Shown: one piece after another, positions 10,989-39,085 of the stretch
Layout of the letters: each line of letters starts with the position of its first letter
How positions within the stretch are numbered: the stretch's first letter is position 1
Program-made: the position numbers and the translations under genes
Origin: Balamuthia mandrillaris
Lineage: Eukaryota
Direction of reading: 5' to 3'
Assembly: GCA_031835245.2 (NCBI GenBank)
Contig: JAVKOQ020000075.1
Coordinates: forward strand, 62,001 to 126,000
Length of the DNA: 64,000 nucleotides
The notes under the pieces: generated by a model
Databases searched by the model: none
Told to the model about the DNA's origin: nothing
The model's input: only the letters and a program-made list of their open reading frames with translations

Positions 10989-13900
10989 CTAGGGAAAACC
11001 TGTGTATCCCAAACATAAACTTTGCCGGAGAGAGAGCCACACCAAACGTCATTATCAACAAGCAACATTGCACTTATTTCGTCCTCAATACCGCCAAGTA
11101 TTCTCAACATGTTACCGGACTGATTTGGAAAAATCTTGTGAGCTAATTGAAAAAGATTATGATGTAATGCGCAGCTTAGGCTGAAAAATAAAATCTAACC
11201 TTGGCTTTCCATATCTTTATGGTTTTGTCAAGAGAAGAGGTCCACACAGTTCCGGACTGAGGTATGAAAAGGATATCCAAGATGCGATCGGCGTGAGCTT
11301 TTTTGCTGTAGGCAAGGTTTTCCTCCTCCAATGAGTAGATTAACAAATCTCCGTCTTCGTTGCCACACCATACCGACCCTGTTTGCACCTTGTTGCCTCC
11401 AGTGCTGTTTTTGAGCATGAATACAGTTGTTTTTACAAACAAGACAAGAAGAGAAAGGAGAAAAGAGGAAAAAGGAAAAAGAAAACAAAAGAAATGAACC
11501 TGGATACGCCAATGTCAGCCCAAACCAACGCCATGCAGTCTAACGAACCTTCCATTTGCTGAGGTATGCTTTTAACGAATCGGAACTCTTTCAGAGCGTT
11601 AATGTCTCTCCAAGGCACCTTTTGTGCTGTTCTGAAGGAGGACCTTCGGCTTCCGGGTTTGGAACCATAATCCATATTTTCTTCTTCGGCAATGGACGCT
11701 TTTCGGTCCTTTCGAACACTGCCGGCCATTAAAGAGGAAGTGGATGTCCCTTCCAAAGGGAATGAAGTCATATTCTTATCCACCTCCTCTTTGAAAGCAT
11801 CAACAGCGCTTTCACCCAACAACAATTCTTGTATCCGTATCAGCTCTTCCAAAATCTGTTTGAACGTGGGCCTGAAGGCAGGGTCTTCATGTAAACAAAT
11901 CTGCACTAAATTTTCCCAACGTTCTCGCCAGCTGCAAGTGTTGCTGTCATTTGGCGATGACGTTGTAGAGGAAGAAGAGGGAGAAGAGGAAAGCAAACGA
12001 GACGGATTCAACATGGAAGTGATGCTGCCTCTTCTGAACTTAGGAACACTTACTTCAGGCTCTTCTCCGGTAAGAAGCTCGCAGAGAATGACACCTAAAT
12101 CATGGAAAGTGAGAAAATTGGAATTGACTTGTTGCATTTGTGGTAGTGGTACCAAAGTTGTAAATGTCGGTTTTAGGAGACGCTTCAACAGGAAATGGTT
12201 CTCTTGAAAGAGTAGTGTCATCAACATTATTTTTCTTCTCGTCTCTGGGTGATGAGGAATCGGAGGAGTCTGGATGCGACGTGTGCCTGTTTTTCCAGCC
12301 CTTCAATCCTCCGCGAGGAGTAGATTCTCTTGATGATTCCTTTTGTTCAACTAGATTTCTGCTCATTGCATTTACCAACCATGAAGCTCCGATGCTATTC
12401 TCCCAATTCAACGGATAGAAATAAGTATGAAAGAAAAGAGGAGGAGAAAGGAAAGCAGAGCGCAGAGAGAGCAGAGGGAAGCGAGGATAAAAAAACGCAC
12501 TCTCCAATTTTTGGAATGAGAGGTTGCGACGAATCGACGGTATAATCTGGCACCTAACCAGAAAAACGAATATCAGAAGGGCAAACGACGAAGGTAAAAA
12601 AGCAAAACAATCCAAACCATGATGTTGCGAGAACAAAGGTCTGATTGCAGCAAAGCTGGTGGATGCAGAGAGTGAAGAAAATGCATAGCTTGGCATAGAT
12701 GCAACGCTATGTTGACATTTTGTGATGCCAAGCATTTTTCTGACAAGTCTTCGTCCGCCTCTTCTTCCGTGGTTTTCTCCTCCTGTTCTTCTTCTACAGC
12801 CTCAATCATTCTTTGTGTGCGTTGCTTAACATGAATGTGATGATAAAGGCTGCAAGAACCAACTGGCCTTTCCAACATAATCCCAACAATTGGGATTTGT
12901 AGTAAAGGTATAGTGTTTGTTGAGTCCGATCCTCCATTCTTCGCTTTTGCTTCTTCATCTCGGTTACAGCAATACATTCCCACCGATCGCAGCACGTTGG
13001 TGTGAAGACGTGTACTGCTTATCACATGCAATCAGTATTCGAAACATAAGACAAGAAGAATAAGAAAAGGAACAAACTTGAAAAGCCAAACAGTGCGAAC
13101 GAGCTCCCATATCAAGGTCATTGGTATAACAGCCGGAGGGGAGTCATTACTTGCTTTACCTCTCCAAATCCGCAACGCTCTGCTGTCCTCCCTTCTTGCC
13201 AGAATCGCCTTCCACTGTGCAACATCCATCAATAGAGAAGGTGGAGAAATGGCAGCCATCAACACCAAGTCAGGAACTAGTCTATCCATTCTAACTGGAT
13301 AAATGCCTCCGCAAGGAACCACTCTGACTTGCTTGGATTGTGGTTTGGAGACAAGGTTTTGGCATGTGTCGAAGGCAAAAAGTTCTGGAACTTCTTCCTC
13401 CGATTTACTGAAGAAGTGATTGGAGGCGGAAAGGCAGTGCAAGCATGGCACCTCCGTTGAGATGAGTAACTTGGAGAAGTTGAAACGGGGATGAAGATAC
13501 ATCTTTCCATCAAATTGCTCTGATGGGATACTAAACAAAAGCATATGAGTTAAAATAATAACATTGATATGAGAAAGAGCGATAGAGAGAGAGAGAGAGA
13601 GATAACGAAAAAGAAACGAACCTGGAGTAAACCTCTTCAACAGCAGAAGTAAGCGAAGATAAGGAAAAGTTGATAACGTCCAATAAACGATGAATTAGGA
13701 TTTGAGCAGGTAGAGAAGGTACTGCAACCAAATTATCTCTCTCCCATACGCTTACTTTCAAGACGTGATGCTGTTGTTTTGATCTCAACACTTCTACAGA
13801 CCTGCTCATCTCTTGTTGTTCAGAACTAGAATTATTGGTCTCTTCTTCCTCTTCCTCTTTTCCGTCTTCTCTCCCAGCACGCAAAGAACGCATCGAACGA

Positions 13901-16900
13901 GCAGCCAACGCCTTCGTTCGCATTCTTCGCTTGATCTGCGTTTCAATAGCAGAAGAACAAGTAACCAGCTGAACAATAGCGCACGTATTGCCATCGTCTA
14001 ATTTGTTGGAGAGAATGAGGCCTTGTCGCCAGTAACACTCCACTTGCATTGCTATAAGGTGTTGGGCCTCACTTGTTGGATTACAAAGATTTCGCAGCAA
14101 ACGAACCAACAATCTCGCAAAGATTCCAGGTGGCAAAAAGCTAAACAACCACCATCGCTCGAACTTGACGTCTCCCATCTTTTTCATTCCGAAAGAATCG
14201 ATCTCTTTTTGCTTTTGGATTTCCTTTTGCGTTTCCTTCTTTTCTTTTTGGGTCTTGCTGTTGTTCTTCTCATCCATCTCTTCGTCTCTGTCATCGTTAT
14301 ACAGTATGTCTCGTTCGTAGGTACGACGTTCGGGCTCCACGACGGAAGATGGATGAATTTTCTCTTTCAGGTATCTCGTCCACTTGTGGGATGAAGACGA
14401 AGATAATGTGTTCTTTCTGGTTGCAACATTCTTTCCATTGATAACTCTGGGATGAAAAGGGAACATGGATGGCATCACGCTCTTCTCCACAGGCGTAGAA
14501 GAAGAATCATCAGATAGAGGAGCGTAGTTGAGAGCGAAGCTGTTCGTGCGGTCGGTGTACGTGAGTTCCAACCGTTCCAATATAGAGAACAAGAGAGGAA
14601 AAGCTGCCTCATGATAACCAACTACAAACTTGTCGAGGTCAGCGTCGCTAGCAAAGAGCCATGGCGAGTGTTCCCGTAAAGGATGGTCGTGCAAAACGTC
14701 TTTAAAAAGCTCCTCTTCCTCCAGAGATGACCAAACATGTTTCAGGTTACGGTGGTAGAAGACGCCTTCGCTCTTTCCATCGTCTGGCAATGTAAAAGAG
14801 GGAGAGGAGTGTTTTGAGCGCTGGCTTCCTTTCTCTTTCTTCTTTTTCTTTTGCTTCTTACCGTTTTCATCACCGGAGTCGTCCTTTTTATTGTTTTGGT
14901 TTGGTGCATCTTTCTCGTCTGATTTGTGCTTTTTGTTGTCGGATATTTTTTCTTCTGTTGTGGAAGAGCGTCTGGTAGCAGATACTGGGGCGGAACTCTT
15001 TCGCTTTCGTAAGAGCGAGAGGACGCTGCGTCGATTGCGGTGTGCTTCAAACACAGAATACATGACTCCAACCAGCCAATCCACATCCAAAAATACAGAC
15101 AAAGATGATGGCTCCGGTTCATATGAAGAAGAAGAGGAAGGATCAGTTGTGGTGCTAGGGAAGTAAAATACACTTCCTGTGCTATGCAGAAAATCGGCAA
15201 CTTGTGTTAACGGTACTTTGTCCTTGTTGTTGGCGTCGTTGGTTTTGGATAGACCGAGTAATGCTGCTGCCTCTTGAAACTCGGGCCAAGAGAGAGCAGG
15301 CAAACGCACGGACTGTGGAATCCCATTGTAACTCTTGCTTCGTTGCTCTTGAAAACGTTCCATGCTAAGAGCGGCAAGCATTTCGGCTAGCACGTGGTAA
15401 CGTTGAGGTACTGGCTTTGACAACGGTCTGATAGATGGATGGGCGATTTTAGAATAACTAATTTCGTGTGAGAAAGCGAGAAGAATGATATTACCCTAAC
15501 TCCAACGCAACAGCGTTGAGCTTGGATTGTAATTCCGTGATGCCATCTAACTTCAAGCAATTAACAGCGGTGGCCCATCTTATGAATGGATAGTTGGAAA
15601 GGTATTTGTGCACTATGTGGTGCCTCAGTGCTAATTGAAAGAAGCCTTCGCGCGGCGTTTGCCCAACTGGATTATTCGAGATCGGAAATTTAGCAAATAA
15701 ATGCGAGAGAGAGTGGAATTAAAGGGAAGTTACCAGAAATAAGAAAATCGACAGCCCGTTTGTGATCCATGTGAGTGGCGACAATGACCACCGAAGGCGG
15801 GGAGCCTGACGGAGAACACCTTGACTCAATGCATTGAAGCCACCACTCCAAACCTTCTTCAGCATGCGCTGCACTCATGTCCCACACAAGCAGTATCACC
15901 GCACGCTCCTCCGCAATAAACAATTGGTGTATATCTCTCAGATCAAAGGCACCTTTCATCAATTGCAATTTCAGCAAGAAAGAGGGTAGAGAGAGGGAGC
16001 GGAAGGGTATACCATCAAAGTCCCATGCTTGGTAGGATATTTCAGTAAAGGAGGTGGCAGCACCAGTTCTGCGTTCGCCAAAAAGACCAGCTGCGGCTGA
16101 CTGCGACGATGAAGAAGTTGTCTCTTCATTGATCGGGAGGAGAAGGTCTTCCACGATATGAATGCCTTGATGACTTCCGGATTGTATCTGGTGTTTGTTC
16201 TTTTTGCCCTTCTTCCGTTTCACTTTCGGCGATGACTTTTTCTCTTCCTTCGTTTTTTCTTTGTCTTCCTTTGTCTTCATTTCTCTTTCTTCTTTGTCTT
16301 CTTTTTGCACTCTATCCCTCTTAATGAATCTTGTGCTTAGAACTTTGGTTGCTCGCATTTTACCCGATTTCTTCAGGCCACTGTTGCTGCCGCTATGTTC
16401 TCCTCTCGGCACTATAACGCTCCTATGCGATGGAACAGGACTTGCAACAGATGGCTCCTCTTTGTCCGCTGAACTCGCTTTGTCTTTCTTCTTTTTCTTC
16501 GGAAGAGCTTTTTGCAGACTAGACAGTAATGTTGTCTTTCCTGCTCCCTCTGTTCATTGGTTATGTGTGTCAGAACATCAAGACTGGAAAACAAAGAACT
16601 AGACGTTACGTACTGTCACCAAGAATTAGCAGTTTAACTCTTCCAAAAGGTTGGGACTGGTTCAGTATCTTCCGGTAATGAGTGACAAGAGCAACAGCCT
16701 GCAAGCCCTTATCCACAACAGCAGGCGGTAACGGTGGAGGCGGAGGCTCAGCGACTGTCACCGAAGTGTGGGGAGAGTCAGGTGGCATGGACAAGGAGAC
16801 GAAGATGGGTGCTGGAAAGAAGATAGGTCCAAGACTTGCGTTCAGAGAAGGGTGGTTGTGTTGTGTGTTAAGTTGCTGAAGGTTGGGAAGAAGGCCAATA

Positions 16901-32137: not shown

Positions 32138-32291
32138 AATGAGATTAAAAAGAAACAAAGAAAGAATAATTACCTGTTATGAAGAACCAGGTTGACGCGG
32201 CACGCTCGAGACAAAGGGACGTTATTTTCAGCCTAAGAGAACACGAATTAGAACCAATTTTAAACAATAGAGTTCACACTCTTCGAAAGAA

Positions 32292-32381
32292 GCAGTGTCA
32301 GAATTTGATATTGAGATCAACGGGTATTTGAAATACCACTCATCTGTCCCTAACTCAAATAAAAAGGTCTCATCACGCTAC
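32292..32381 (-). ncRNA. SNORD74: Box C/D snoRNA, SNORD74/snR64-like
   Basis: Minus strand: box C GTGATGA (32376-32370), guide GAGTTAGGGACAG, D' ATGA, internal stem GGTATT/AATACC, box D CTGA (32301-32298), short terminal stem GTAG/CTGC. The guide is complementary to LSU rRNA CUGUCCCUA, as in U74. Confidence 0.8.
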
Positions 32382-32684
32382 CGATGCGCAGTATGAGAGA
32401 TGGTGAGGAGGTACTTGCCTTGGCGGGCGCAGTGAACAGCTAGTGAGTGAGTGAAAGCAGTGTTGCGGTAGTGTTGTTGTAGCAGTGGAAACCAAAATAA
32501 TAAAAAGAAGAGCCAAAAGAAAGAAATAAAACCCAAGAAAGGGCCGGTCAAACGAGGGTTACACGCCTCCTAAAAATCGGGATTAATTCTCGGACACGAG
32601 AGAGGAGAGGAGATAAGTGACGTCAGATTAAACTGTTTTTCTTTTTCCTCCTTCCGCCTTTCCTCCTTACAGTACCCCTAACCC

Positions 32685-33647
32685 TTACATTACCCCCGGA
32701 AAGGGCACAATGCGCATTCGCTTTCGCAGCTCTTCCAAGTTTTCCTCGAACAGGCGTTCATAATAGATGTTCATAAAGAAGTGTGGTGTTTGTTGAGCGG
32801 ACGCTTTTGCCCACGGGATGTATTTGCTCCTCAGCTCTGATTGCTCCGAGAAGCTCAGCCGAAGTGGGCCTACAAAAGAGCTCAGCACACTCATGGGCAA
32901 CGGAAAAGAGGCTTTGTAGCTCATTTGGTACATTTCATACCACTTGAGTGCAATCTCTCCCAACACGGTGGGTGGCAGACCCACGAGCAGATGCAAAAAG
33001 TCGTGGACCTCACGGTAACGGGTCATGACGTAGGCCAGCTCCTCGTCATCCACGAACCGCACTTGCGGCCGCTTGTCTGGCGAGAAGCCTTCTGCGCGCA
33101 GCCACTCGACGTACTCTTTGCCAAAAGAGCCTGCTGGCAGCTTTGATAGCATCTCAAGGTCAACGCTGTTTTCTCTCACCCTATATACGTTGTTGAGTGG
33201 AAGCCATAGGAAGAGGAATGAACAAAGTTCGGACCTTGGTCTTTCAAGTAATATTTCTTGTCCTTCTGGGTCCTTGCGCATGGCCTGAAGCATTTGGCCA
33301 AGGGCATAGTCCCCTGTAGTTTCTCCCAAGGCGGCCACCATGTCCATCCGTTCTGGTCGAGCGAGGGCCATAAAGGCAGAGCCGAAGGTCATCAAAGCCT
33401 TTTGAAATGGAGACAGTTGGACGTGATTCGGATAAAGGGAGGAGGAGGAAGAAGGATGGTTGTCAGAAGAAGAGGAAGAAGAGCCCTGCTTGGCAGAAGT
33501 GGAGAAAAAAGGGTGTGATGAAAGAAAGGCGGAATTCCGCCACAAAGGCGAAGAGCACAACCGATTCGTCGCTGACTTTGGTTTACACGAGGCTTGGAAG
33601 ACGCGTGTTGCCGTTGCGACCTCCCCAAGGGCTCTCCGCGTTTGCAT
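32685..33647 (-). CDS. COQ4: Ubiquinone biosynthesis protein COQ4 (one in-frame intron at about 33180-33232)
   Basis: Mitochondrial presequence; MVAALGETTG, RYREVHDFLHLL..GEIALKWYE (HDxxH-x11-E motif), MNIYYE. Confidence 0.95.
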   Translation of the reverse strand: MQTRRALGEVATATRVFQASCKPKSATNRLCSSPLWRNSAFLSSHPFFSTSAKQGSSSSSSDNHPSSSSSLYPNHVQLSPFQKALMTFGSAFMALARPERMDMVAALGETTGDYALGQMLQAMRKDPEGQEILLERPRSELCSFLFLWLPLNNVYRVRENSVDLEMLSKLPAGSFGKEYVEWLRAEGFSPDKRPQVRFVDDEELAYVMTRYREVHDFLHLLVGLPPTVLGEIALKWYEMYQMSYKASFPLPMSVLSSFVGPLRLSFSEQSELRSKYIPWAKASAQQTPHFFMNIYYERLFEENLEELRKRMRIVPFPGVM

Positions 33648-33961
33648 CTTTTCGGGTTGAGAGTTTCTTTCTCTTATAGATCACACAGGATCTAATAACT
33701 GAAATTTCGATATATATCATGAAAAATACCTTTTTAAAGATTTTCATGAAATAAGTTGCGACCAATGGGGCTTCGCGCCTGTTGGCTGGTTTCTTCTTTT
33801 TGATTGTGGTTTTTGGGATCACGGTCACTGTGGGGTCAGAAATTTGTTTTTGCTAAAAGTTTAAGCTAAAAATTCAGGGGGTAGAGAACTGAAAGAAGCG
33901 AGCGACGGGGTAAAAGAGTTGTGGCAAGATCAGTGTGTCAACAAAAGGGGTGCTCTTCTCC

Positions 33962-34893
33962 ATGAAGTGCTTCTTTATATTGCTCTTTGCCATTGCGGTC
34001 TGGAGCGCGACAGTTCGTGCCTCTGCAGCCCCTCTCAATCCCCCAGGCCGCATCGGTGGGTTGATGTACCTGGAAAGATGCACAAACATTCCTGAAGTTG
34101 ACGATTTAAGCGGTTTCACAACAAGAACGTTTCAACGGCTACGAGGACTTGAACTGAACGTCAGCCGTGAGGATCCCAGAGGTTTGGACCGACGATTTCC
34201 TACTTTTCTTCCTGGCCTTTGTGGTCCACAAGTTGCGGGATCCTATCTGGAGGACCTCATTCTCGTGAACGCGGTAGAGTTTGAGTTCGACAACACTTTT
34301 TTCTACTCAGTCGACTTGGATAATCTAGGTTTAAGAGAGGAACGGCGCGAGACTACTTCTCGTAGCTCCCTCCTTCCCACCAAGATGACAAGGGAAGAGG
34401 TCGAGCAGCGCTTGCATGGTATCGAAGGAAGGTCCACTGAGAGGAAAGCTCATAAGAGCAGCATTTCCGCCAAGCGCAAGAGGCAAGAGGAAATCCTGCA
34501 GGAGGTGAATGAACGTTTGGAGAGGTTGGGCCTCAAACGCGAAGACTTGCATCAAGCCACCGCACCACGTTCCGAAAGGTCCTCCTTGGCGTGGAAAAGG
34601 AAGGCCACTCCCGGTCATTCCACAAACCAGGTTCTCACAGCCAAGCAGAGAGCTGCCATCAAAGCCCAAATGAAGAGAGACTACGATCTGCCGGAAGCTG
34701 GAAATGGCAACGGTCTTATCGGTAACCTTGCAGGCAATATTGGTTTCGGCTCCGTCAAGGTTACCAAGTTCTTTGATGGTTCTAGCAATGAATTGCTGCA
34801 GCTTCTGGAGAGGAACACTGGCAACTTTGGTATATTCCCGCTTTGTCCAGTTCACTCTGAACTATCAACCTCATATCTTATTTTTGCGCCTTG

Positions 34894-34936
<43 letters not shown>

Positions 34937-36320
34937 CTCACCTCTCACATTAGTGGATCTTTCGGACCAGGAGCAATGCCCACCAGCTCTGATGGTGGCT
35001 TTGAGGCTGCCCTCATTGAAGCCCGGCGTCAGTATGTTTGTGGTCCTGGTACCGGCTGTGTTGAAGGAGTACCACATGGAGCTTCCGGATAGCAACATCA
35101 ACAACGACATGAAGGAGGTCTATTACTTCGACTATGGCAGCATGATCTATTTCTACAGCACCAACGATGACAGGTATTATACCGTTTCCCTTGCTGCTAT
35201 GAGTTTGGATGTGTTGTTTGCGTTTTCGTTAGATGCAAGACGAGGAATGAGATAGAGATATAGAACTTTCTCTACTAACAACGAATTAACAAACAAACTC
35301 AATAGGTACGGCATCAAGGACCTAGACTTCACATCTGGCACCTGCAACCTGGACTTGTTCTGCCAAATACACCCATGTGTGTGCCACCGCTACTCCACCG
35401 GCGTTCGTTCCATCGAGCTTTCTCAGCGGATCAAGGCTAGCCTCACCAAGAAGATCATGCAAGTGGAGAAGGAGATAGAGGAGGATGTAGGGGGCAGGAA
35501 GCAAGCCGCTGAGAGGAAAAAGTACCTCGGCATGAACAAGCAGCAGATCAAGAGAGCCAAGCACATTCAGAAGAAGGAGATGCTGAAGGAAAGGTTGTTA
35601 AACGTGAAGGAGTTTGATGACTGGTACGACTTTTTGGAGTGCGATCCGCTTAACCCGGCCCCTGAGGACCTCTTCACCATCACCATTACCACGGATGACT
35701 TCCCCACGGAGACGCGTTGGTTCGTCTACGATGAGAACACGCTGGAAGGTTTTGGCGTGGCGCCCTTTGGCACTTACACCGACCCCCACACCACCTACAG
35801 CGACTACCTCATCCTTCCCGAGGACACCTGCTACATCTTCTACATTGAGGATGCAGAGGGTGACGGACTCGAGCCACCCGCCACCTACACCGTAACCTTC
35901 GGCGAGGAGACTTTTACCTCCCCCAACAACAATTCCTTTGGCTTTGCCGAGCCCATCCGCTTTGGTCGTCGGTGCGGCCACAGGGAGACCCTCAAGATAG
36001 AGATCACCACCGACAAGTACCCACAGGAAATCAGCTGGTTCCTCGAGTACGTGCCCGCTGGTGGCAACGTCGCCGCCGTCTACCCCGGTGAGTGGGCTGG
36101 CTTCTTTGAGGAGAAGAAGACGGTGGACGTCAGCCTTGACCCCACCCAGTGCTACAGCTTCCAAATCATCGATGCCGGAGGGGATGGCCTTGAGAGCGAT
36201 CCCACTTTTGGCACGGGAGTGATTGAACTAATTTTCGAGGGAGAGACCATCCCCGTTGACGCCAACTTTGGTGCCAGCAGTCCCTACACCTACGTTGGTA
36301 ACTGTGCTGGTTTCATCTAA
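33962..36320 (+). CDS. Secreted protein of about 700 aa: signal peptide, Hcp/phage-tail-tube-like domain with charged insert, two tandem beta-rich repeats (3 exons)
   Basis: Exons 33962-34829, 34954-35173 and 35306-36320 join in frame with GT-AG introns (2103 nt). Signal MKCFFILLFAIAVWSATVRA. The Hcp-like assignment is by eye; see findings. Confidence 0.75.

Positions 36321-36545: not shown

Positions 36546-39085
<2,540 letters not shown>

Follow-up and report, generated by a model that had tools for sequence, protein, structure and literature searches.

The amoeba Balamuthia mandrillaris carries an intron-bearing gene for an Hcp-like protein predicted to be exported

Introduction

To our knowledge, the fold from which the tubes in phage tails and injection systems are built is regarded as prokaryotic and viral. 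In this work we have analyzed a stretch of 64,000 nucleotides (nt) from Balamuthia mandrillaris (assembly GCA_031835245.2, contig JAVKOQ020000075.1, positions 62,001 to 126,000 of the forward strand; hereafter the window), in which a preliminary description had noticed an intron-containing gene for a secreted protein with a domain resembling Hcp, the tube subunit in type VI secretion systems (T6SS), or a phage tail tube. This locus raises the question of whether an Hcp has been turned into a eukaryotic extracellular protein and what such a protein could do. We find that an Hcp-type tube fold is well supported, because of both profile-profile comparison and a structure model built from the family alone.

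Results

An Hcp-like domain in a spliced gene

Once its two predicted introns are spliced out, the gene is one open frame of 700 amino acids, running from the ATG at 33962 to the stop at 36320 on the plus strand, and it has the following parts (window positions).

33962-34829, plus strand: exon 1, residues 1-289 plus 1 nt; equals the start of KAL6066749.1
33962-34027, plus strand: predicted signal peptide, residues 1 to about 22, with a hydrophobic core and the cleavage site placed by eye
34058-34084, plus strand: predicted first Hcp strand with the conserved Cys40, residues 33-41 (MY-x-E-x-C in P0004, P0010, and P0163)
34085-34195, plus strand: insert A, residues 42-78, in Hcp loop L1,2; variable, with one RR site
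34196-34300, plus strand: conserved block, residues 79-113, with Cys87, a G-S motif, and a strand matching the Hcp IEV-x-S-W strand
34301-34711, plus strand: insert B, residues 114-250, in Hcp loop L2,3; charged, with six KR/RR sites
34712-35315, plus strand: main Hcp-like half, residues 251-366, across both introns, from profile and structure comparisons
34830-34953, plus strand: intron 1, 124 nt, GT..AG, with a CT repeat and a pyrimidine tract
34954-35173, plus strand: exon 2, in the spliced reading frame
35174-35305, plus strand: intron 2, 132 nt, GT..AG
35306-36320, plus strand: exon 3, running to the stop, covered by a probable-RNA contig
35343-35384, plus strand: cysteine cluster C-x5-C-x2-H-P-C-x-C, residues 376-389; family-specific, kept in P0004, P0010, and P0156
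35394-35642, plus strand: basic linker, predicted to be helical, residues 393-470, ending in W..C (Cys475); helices with a predicted local distance difference test (pLDDT) of 60-68
35667-35978, plus strand: beta module 1, residues 484-587, with a D-x-x-G-D-G motif, Cys538, and Cys586
35982-36317, plus strand: beta module 2, residues 589-700, 33% identical to module 1

By sequence, the front half points to Hcp (PF05638 type) and not to gp19-type phage tubes or the tubes of extracellular contractile injection systems (eCIS). No Hcp or tail model in Pfam, NCBIfam, PHROGs, or PDB sequences matched at E up to 10, and the HMMER comparison to PF05638 suggested in the preliminary description was negative, as neither the whole protein nor its exons reached the gathering score of 23.5 bits or matched any family at E up to 10; by score, the protein is not a member of PF05638. 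A home-made profile of 33 Hcp sequences, with alignments built from fetched loci, gave 15.2 bits with the unaltered protein (E 1.3e-4 among 164 proteins). All eight best-ranked proteins belonged to the family: this gene contributed three of the rows and two near-duplicate groups the remainder. P0156 and P0016 followed at ranks 11 and 12. Among unrelated proteins the highest score was 1.5 bits. Comparing the family with Hcp, hhalign gave 79% untrimmed and 90% without the inserts, with scores of 40-42 versus maxima of 19 and 22 in the controls (60 block-shuffles each) and 13-14 for reversed sequences. A separate comparison gave 86.4% over 115 columns, and remote profile homology extends along the Hcp domain at up to 86-90% over 115-120 columns. 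These values depend on the Hcp set chosen (57, 26, and 2.7% untrimmed; 90, 71, and 33% trimmed; 12-90% trimmed in a second series of sets).

The same approach gave 0.08-0.16% for a gp19/eCIS tube profile (PF06841, 30 sequences), together with no tail PHROG match, 0.04-0.06% for the Bacteroidota T6SS-iii TssD (PF17642, a profile of just five sequences), and 0.09-0.14% for the PNPOx-like FMN split barrel (PF01243, 30 sequences), the fold of which is itself related; in a same-run calibration Hcp gave 47% against true TssD and 3% against gp19. In 72 Hcps, 18 columns reach a conservation of at least 60%; of these, P0004 could be aligned to 15 and was identical in 10, the overall identity to bacterial Hcps being low (median 16%, best 27%). 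The Hcp/tail-tube call of the preliminary description is supported by the profile-profile comparison and the family-only model.

An AlphaFold model of the relative P0010, computed from a family-only alignment, shows a strand-strand-strand-helix-long-hairpin order, in which the strands of the long hairpins, ring-lining in Hcp, are the best-modelled part (pLDDT 57-68) and strand 40-45 lies within the tube-fold superposition. As had been anticipated, this model matches Hcp and tail-tube structures: 29 of the 32 PDB rows shown by Foldseek carry Hcp/T6SS, phage tail, or contractile-injection titles, and so do the top 24 rows of a VIA search over 48,161 chains, where most alignments extend through both inserts (approximately residues 39-279). 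A single-sequence AlphaFold model of the 700-residue protein had a pLDDT of 39.4, and the rows that it gave in a structural search were helices and weak beta-sandwiches; a three-copy complex prediction of P0010 residues 37-320, in which the alignment was not used and the fold was uncertain, scored 0.00. Inserts A and B fall in the two loops of Hcp that vary, L1,2 and L2,3, the latter being needed for stacking according to PMC5874247.

Gene model and splicing

The two introns first proposed, 34830-34953 and 35174-35305, have GT..AG ends at exactly these coordinates and their removal leaves a single open frame, in which all the sequence blocks quoted at the time, and also the hydrophobic N-terminus, are present. 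The gene had been taken to end at 35360; the true stop is at 36320, and the cysteine cluster, the basic helix, and two modules of about 105 residues lie beyond. The C-terminal residues 376-700 (about 330 residues) left out in this way bear on any functional reading. Moreover, the Hcp-like part contains two inserts (residues 42-78 and 114-250) instead of a single charged one. The spliced product is identical letter for letter to NCBI KAL6066749.1 / QOT17_009333 of B. mandrillaris, a record that possibly derives from the same assembly and is hence not independent; it was the only match of an exon 3 query to longer proteins among 3295 candidates.

P0010, a relative without interruption, can be aligned through both splice junctions. 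We also scored splice alternatives (4875 GT..AG combinations, 475 of them open to the stop). The pair given above ranked third of the 475, with 101 bits versus 103 for the top and 74 for the median. The four best combinations all have this intron 2 and an identical exon-2 frame, and the two with higher scores differ in intron 1 alone, with a weaker-looking donor that lies beyond the end of an RNA read pair. This comparative support for the splicing is stronger than the thin RNA support. The RNA check of the introns gave a mixed outcome: one read pair stops at the donor of intron 1, near 34829-34830 (depth falling from 1.0 to 0.02), but no junction reads are listed for the gene in four RNA or probable-RNA runs. 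Three raw-read runs, each sampled at 3-5%, yielded 2, 4, and 4 reads on the gene. The probable-RNA contigs of run X1 make junctions visible in neighboring genes, and for this gene they cover exon 3 only (35296-35991, depth 29), starting 10 nt within intron 2. This start could reflect intron retention, pre-mRNA, or 3' bias. Separately, four RNA reads of run X6 over 35950-36100 share five differences from the window, which may reflect an allele of that strain or a paralogous module that is nearly identical.

Export signal, inserts, and cysteines

The N-terminus is hydrophobic (11-residue Kyte-Doolittle maximum of 3.2 at residue 3, a heuristic used in place of SignalP) and relative P0154 starts similarly; by this heuristic, the signal-like N-termini of P0004 and P0154 set them apart from T6SS Hcps, which are cytoplasmic and lack a signal peptide. 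The only other hydrophobic segment is a borderline 19-residue window (Kyte-Doolittle 1.68). Insert A varies from 37 to 103 residues across three members, and insert B, its loop being assigned by hhalign, has 137 residues in the amoeba protein versus 35-41 in relatives. KR sites are concentrated in inserts and linkers (12 in 571 residues versus 4.8 expected from composition), with none in 588 core residues (0.4 expected). The main half contains the TK-x-x-D-x-S-S-x-x-L strand and helix, long hairpins, and an E-x-x-x-x-D-Y strand. Eight cysteines are conserved across the family; the C-x5-C-x2-H-P-C-x-C cluster was not found in the aligned bacterial Hcps, and the W..C motif is also present in P0156 and P0010.

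Relatives of the front half

Front-half relatives among the phmmer matches listed are P0010 (E 1.9e-23) and P0016 (E 8e-20); P0163 and P0164 were reached from P0010, and a family-profile search of a 5.8-billion set returned P0010 only, among the matches listed. The relatives lie on contigs of 1-9 kb, are at about 35% identity, and follow a common plan: a signal-like N-terminus, MY-x-E-x-C, the variable insert A, a P-G-x-C-G block plus strand, the variable insert B, the main block, the cysteine cluster, the basic linker, and the W..C motif. We infer that these relatives are eukaryotic, because the P0010 frame nearly fills its contigs, P0163 ends and P0156 begins near the intron-1 position, and P0163 carries a poly-Q insert. 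DNA-pattern scans found the P0010 and P0156 loci in no metagenome contig and exon 3 in no genome contig, and P0010 had no plasmid match. PKC C1 domains, the sole PDB-sequence rows of the family profile (E 0.2), were dismissed as cysteine-driven.

The C-terminal beta modules

Within its family, only the amoeba protein has the two beta modules, each of about 105 residues with the motif T-T-D-x-x-P-x-E-T-x-W ... C-Y-x-F-x-I-x-D-x-x-G-D-G (35667-36317). This module belongs to no Pfam family, and its profile had no match among PDB sequences or in 769 frames around Hcp genes. A phmmer search of 1.84 billion representatives gave 482 matches at E up to 0.001, and among the 149 non-self matches listed 147 fall within residues 411-700 and 2 in the front half. 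The module family occurs in extracellular-type proteins (type IX secretion system (T9SS) tail, subtilase, SprB) and in many unnamed proteins too, and module 1 gave weak PLAT-like structural matches. The module deserves a family and a fold of its own.

Origin of the gene

The front half is likely to descend from a bacterial Hcp. No close bacterial donor was found in the genomes searched (401 in a Pseudomonadota sample and 301 in a Bacteroidota sample), as the family profiles gave nothing better than E 0.04-0.06 per genome. A FastTree phylogeny joined the two eukaryote-type rows (0.993) on a long stem (1.19) and placed them beside four near-identical Hcps (0.825; next node 0.385), without identifying a donor.

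The signal peptide had been considered an addition made in the eukaryote, which need not be so, because signal-bearing stand-alone Hcps are common in Bacteroidota: by a hydrophobicity rule, signal-like starts were found in 15 of 34 Hcp frames from the Bacteroidota sample versus 0 of 38 from the Pseudomonadota sample. With hhalign the amoeba family gave similar values, 70% against signal-bearing Hcps and 80% against the canonical set, and is thus no closer to the former. Signal-like Hcps of the Bacteroidota sample are at loci L172, L173, L175, L176, L178, L179, L181, L182, L214, L216-L221, and L226, and no T6SS gene was present among the frames examined within 1.5 kb of signal-bearing Hcps. In three of six tested, the downstream gene encodes either a tail-collar protein with a signal (L172) or a protein with a T9SS tail (L176 and L181). 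There are also five secreted fusions (L222:1414-2106, L223:1432-2133, L224:1417-2844, L225:960-2489, and L227:1405-2067), in which 90-350 further residues separate a signal-like start from an Hcp domain at the C-terminus.

Genomic setting

The gene is nuclear and not a contaminant, because its GC content at third codon positions (0.67) is like that of the neighboring Coq4 exons (0.53 and 0.65) and a contig of another run (32564-34888) spans Coq4 and exon 1; together with the introns, this rules out bacterial contamination. A Pfam scan of the 36 long frames of the window gave ordinary, mostly eukaryotic families, among them Coq4, kinesin, DEAD-box helicase, Upf2, RhoGAP, and F-box/ankyrin. Families of T6SS or phage type were not present in these frames, be it for sheath (TssB/C), VgrG/PAAR, baseplate, or membrane complex, nor was a tape-measure, sheath, or spike gene seen in the window. 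Among 1586 six-frame window pieces, the Hcp profile gave E < 1 for the two frames of this gene only. The absence of other T6SS or phage genes nearby, already noticed in the preliminary description, is thus confirmed on both counts, and as far as the window shows the protein is not part of a T6SS. Other features of the window are the following.

32685-33650, minus strand: Coq4, head-to-head with the Hcp-like gene, about 310 nt separating the start codons
36546-39091, minus strand: kinesin gene, with a SAM-domain frame before it, converging on the Hcp-like gene
13534-15495, minus strand: frame with a ROCO-type COR domain, from the Pfam scan

The Coq4 intron at 33180-33233 is spliced in run X1. 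Very high contig depth near 36616-37083 in three runs probably indicates a repeat, and seven RNA reads at 32277-32381 with a joint that goes back 105 correspond to a tandem duplication in that strain or to a small circular RNA.

Discussion

A possible extracellular ring and its alternatives

What could an Hcp do outside of an amoeba? We tentatively favor a secreted Hcp-derived protein that would be clipped at basic sites and form an extracellular six-membered ring, presenting its beta modules as a multivalent surface binder. The signal peptide would direct the protein into the endoplasmic reticulum (ER), where the eight conserved cysteines are predicted to form disulfides, with Cys40-Cys87 spanning insert A and Cys475 reaching over the basic linker to pair with the cysteine cluster. 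The charged inserts in L1,2 and L2,3 may act as pro-segments that block assembly or stacking in the ER, a kexin/furin-type protease could then clip them at KR sites, and the disulfides would keep the pieces joined. Outside of the cell the protein would form a hexameric ring, as Hcp does, and since its L2,3 is rebuilt the rings would probably stay single or stack only briefly in number; six beta-module pairs could bind with avidity to a surface, be it the amoeba's own coat or cyst wall, a substrate, or prey. The window shows no gene for a sheath, spike, or baseplate, and the protein would hence not inject; it is predicted to work like an exported Hcp scaffold.

A less likely alternative, which we nevertheless take seriously, is that the protein is Hcp-derived and secreted and forms no ring, and that its monomers or dimers, rich in disulfides and with permanent long loops, serve as a scaffold or adhesin. 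Its low identity to bacterial Hcps, its large charged loops, and a C-terminal end rebuilt with a cysteine cluster would fit, and split-barrel proteins, which are structurally related, are dimers. However, the ring-lining hairpin strands are the best-modelled part of P0010, and the strand-helix motif is retained in all three members covering that region.

It is rather improbable that clipped rings stack into extracellular tubes or filaments of a cell coat, cyst wall, or capture fiber. The tube-fold matches include many polymerizing tail and eCIS tubes, and a removable insert at the stacking loop, with its KR sites, would suit delayed polymerization, given the role of that loop in stacking (PMC5874247). 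On the other hand, each subunit carries bulky modules, the transcript level in the RNA runs is low, the window shows no tape-measure, sheath, or spike gene, and loop remnants would persist at the stacking face because the KR sites are inside the inserts.

We consider it quite unlikely that a ring is secreted to transport cargo or to insert itself into prey membranes as an antibacterial, in line with other domesticated T6SS genes. Hcp is a receptor and chaperone of effectors (PMC5874247), T6SS toxin genes have been domesticated as antibacterials in ticks according to bioRxiv 10.1101/2020.04.10.036376, and module 1 has those weak PLAT-like matches, but no cargo, spike, or membrane-spanning segment was identified, the N-terminus and the borderline window described above being the only hydrophobic stretches. 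That the protein is not Hcp-derived, being another split barrel (PNPOx, flavin-reductase, or PilZ-like) or a chance resemblance, is also very improbable, since PNPOx, the sole split-barrel family profiled, stays at 0.09-0.14% versus up to 90% for Hcp and 10 of the 15 alignable conserved Hcp columns are identical. Finally, we give hardly any credit to a gene model joining parts seldom made together (a separate exon 3 transcript or a retained intron 2, the full protein being rare), as the probable-RNA contig beginning inside intron 2, with no contig listed there for exons 1-2, is the picture that 3' bias would also give, coverage holes prove nothing, and the first 30 exon-3 codons extend the domain exactly as in uninterrupted relatives.

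Implications

A spliced, cysteine-stabilized version with an export signal in a eukaryote, with relatives at about 35% identity, would represent the long-term domestication of a structural, non-enzymatic T6SS component. It would also offer a first handle on the role of exported, machine-less Hcps and suggests a built-in switch for tube assembly, namely removable loops at the stacking face. It is conceivable, although we doubt it in this full generality, that microbial eukaryotes including amoebae have turned a T6SS tube subunit into protease-activated, disulfide-stapled, self-assembling extracellular rings or nanotubes with binding modules. Such assemblies would be a eukaryotic extracellular structure made from a contractile-tail part, and they would stand at the domesticated extreme of exported Hcps, a class so far overlooked. 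A candidate surface or secreted protein is thereby named in a poorly annotated human-pathogenic amoeba, with no disease role implied by these results. In the main text of the B. mandrillaris annotation paper (PMC10471605), neither Hcp nor phage occurs as a term, and the same holds for type VI and for secretion system, although its supplements may list the gene.

Comparison with known systems

The closest likeness is to Hcp/TssD of the T6SS (PF05638; PDB 6A2V, 7FCF, 4HKH, and 9QPE are among the structural rows), with which the amoeba protein shares the strand and helix order, the TK-x-x-D-x-S-S-x-x-L motif, the residues of the L114, E135, and Y141 columns, and the length variation of L1,2 and L2,3. 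In contrast to Hcp/TssD, it is below the Pfam cut-off, is encoded by an intron-bearing nuclear gene with no adjacent T6SS genes, and has a predicted ER signal and two beta modules, while its family has eight conserved cysteines, inserts of 35-137 residues with KR sites, the cysteine cluster, and the basic linker. There is no sequence-profile signal linking it to the tail tubes of phages or the inner tubes of eCIS (T4 gp19/gp54 type, Afp1/5, PVC; PF06841).

The signal-bearing stand-alone Hcps of Bacteroidota (L172-L182 and L214-L227), for which we found no paper, are similar in having an export signal before the Hcp domain, no T6SS gene among the flanking frames covered within 1.5 kb, and sometimes a fusion to other extracellular parts. 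They differ in that they pass PF05638, are devoid of inserts and conserved cysteines, and have tail-collar or T9SS-cargo neighbors in three of six cases. A full-text literature search, which covers few subscription journals, returned no paper on eukaryotic Hcp or tail-tube homologs. The nearest published precedent is the domesticated amidase effectors (dae), derived from T6SS tae genes and domesticated as antibacterials in ticks (bioRxiv 10.1101/2020.04.10.036376), which likewise come from a T6SS gene that moved into a eukaryote and are at work outside of the cell; they are toxic enzymes, whereas the amoeba protein would be a structural tube subunit.
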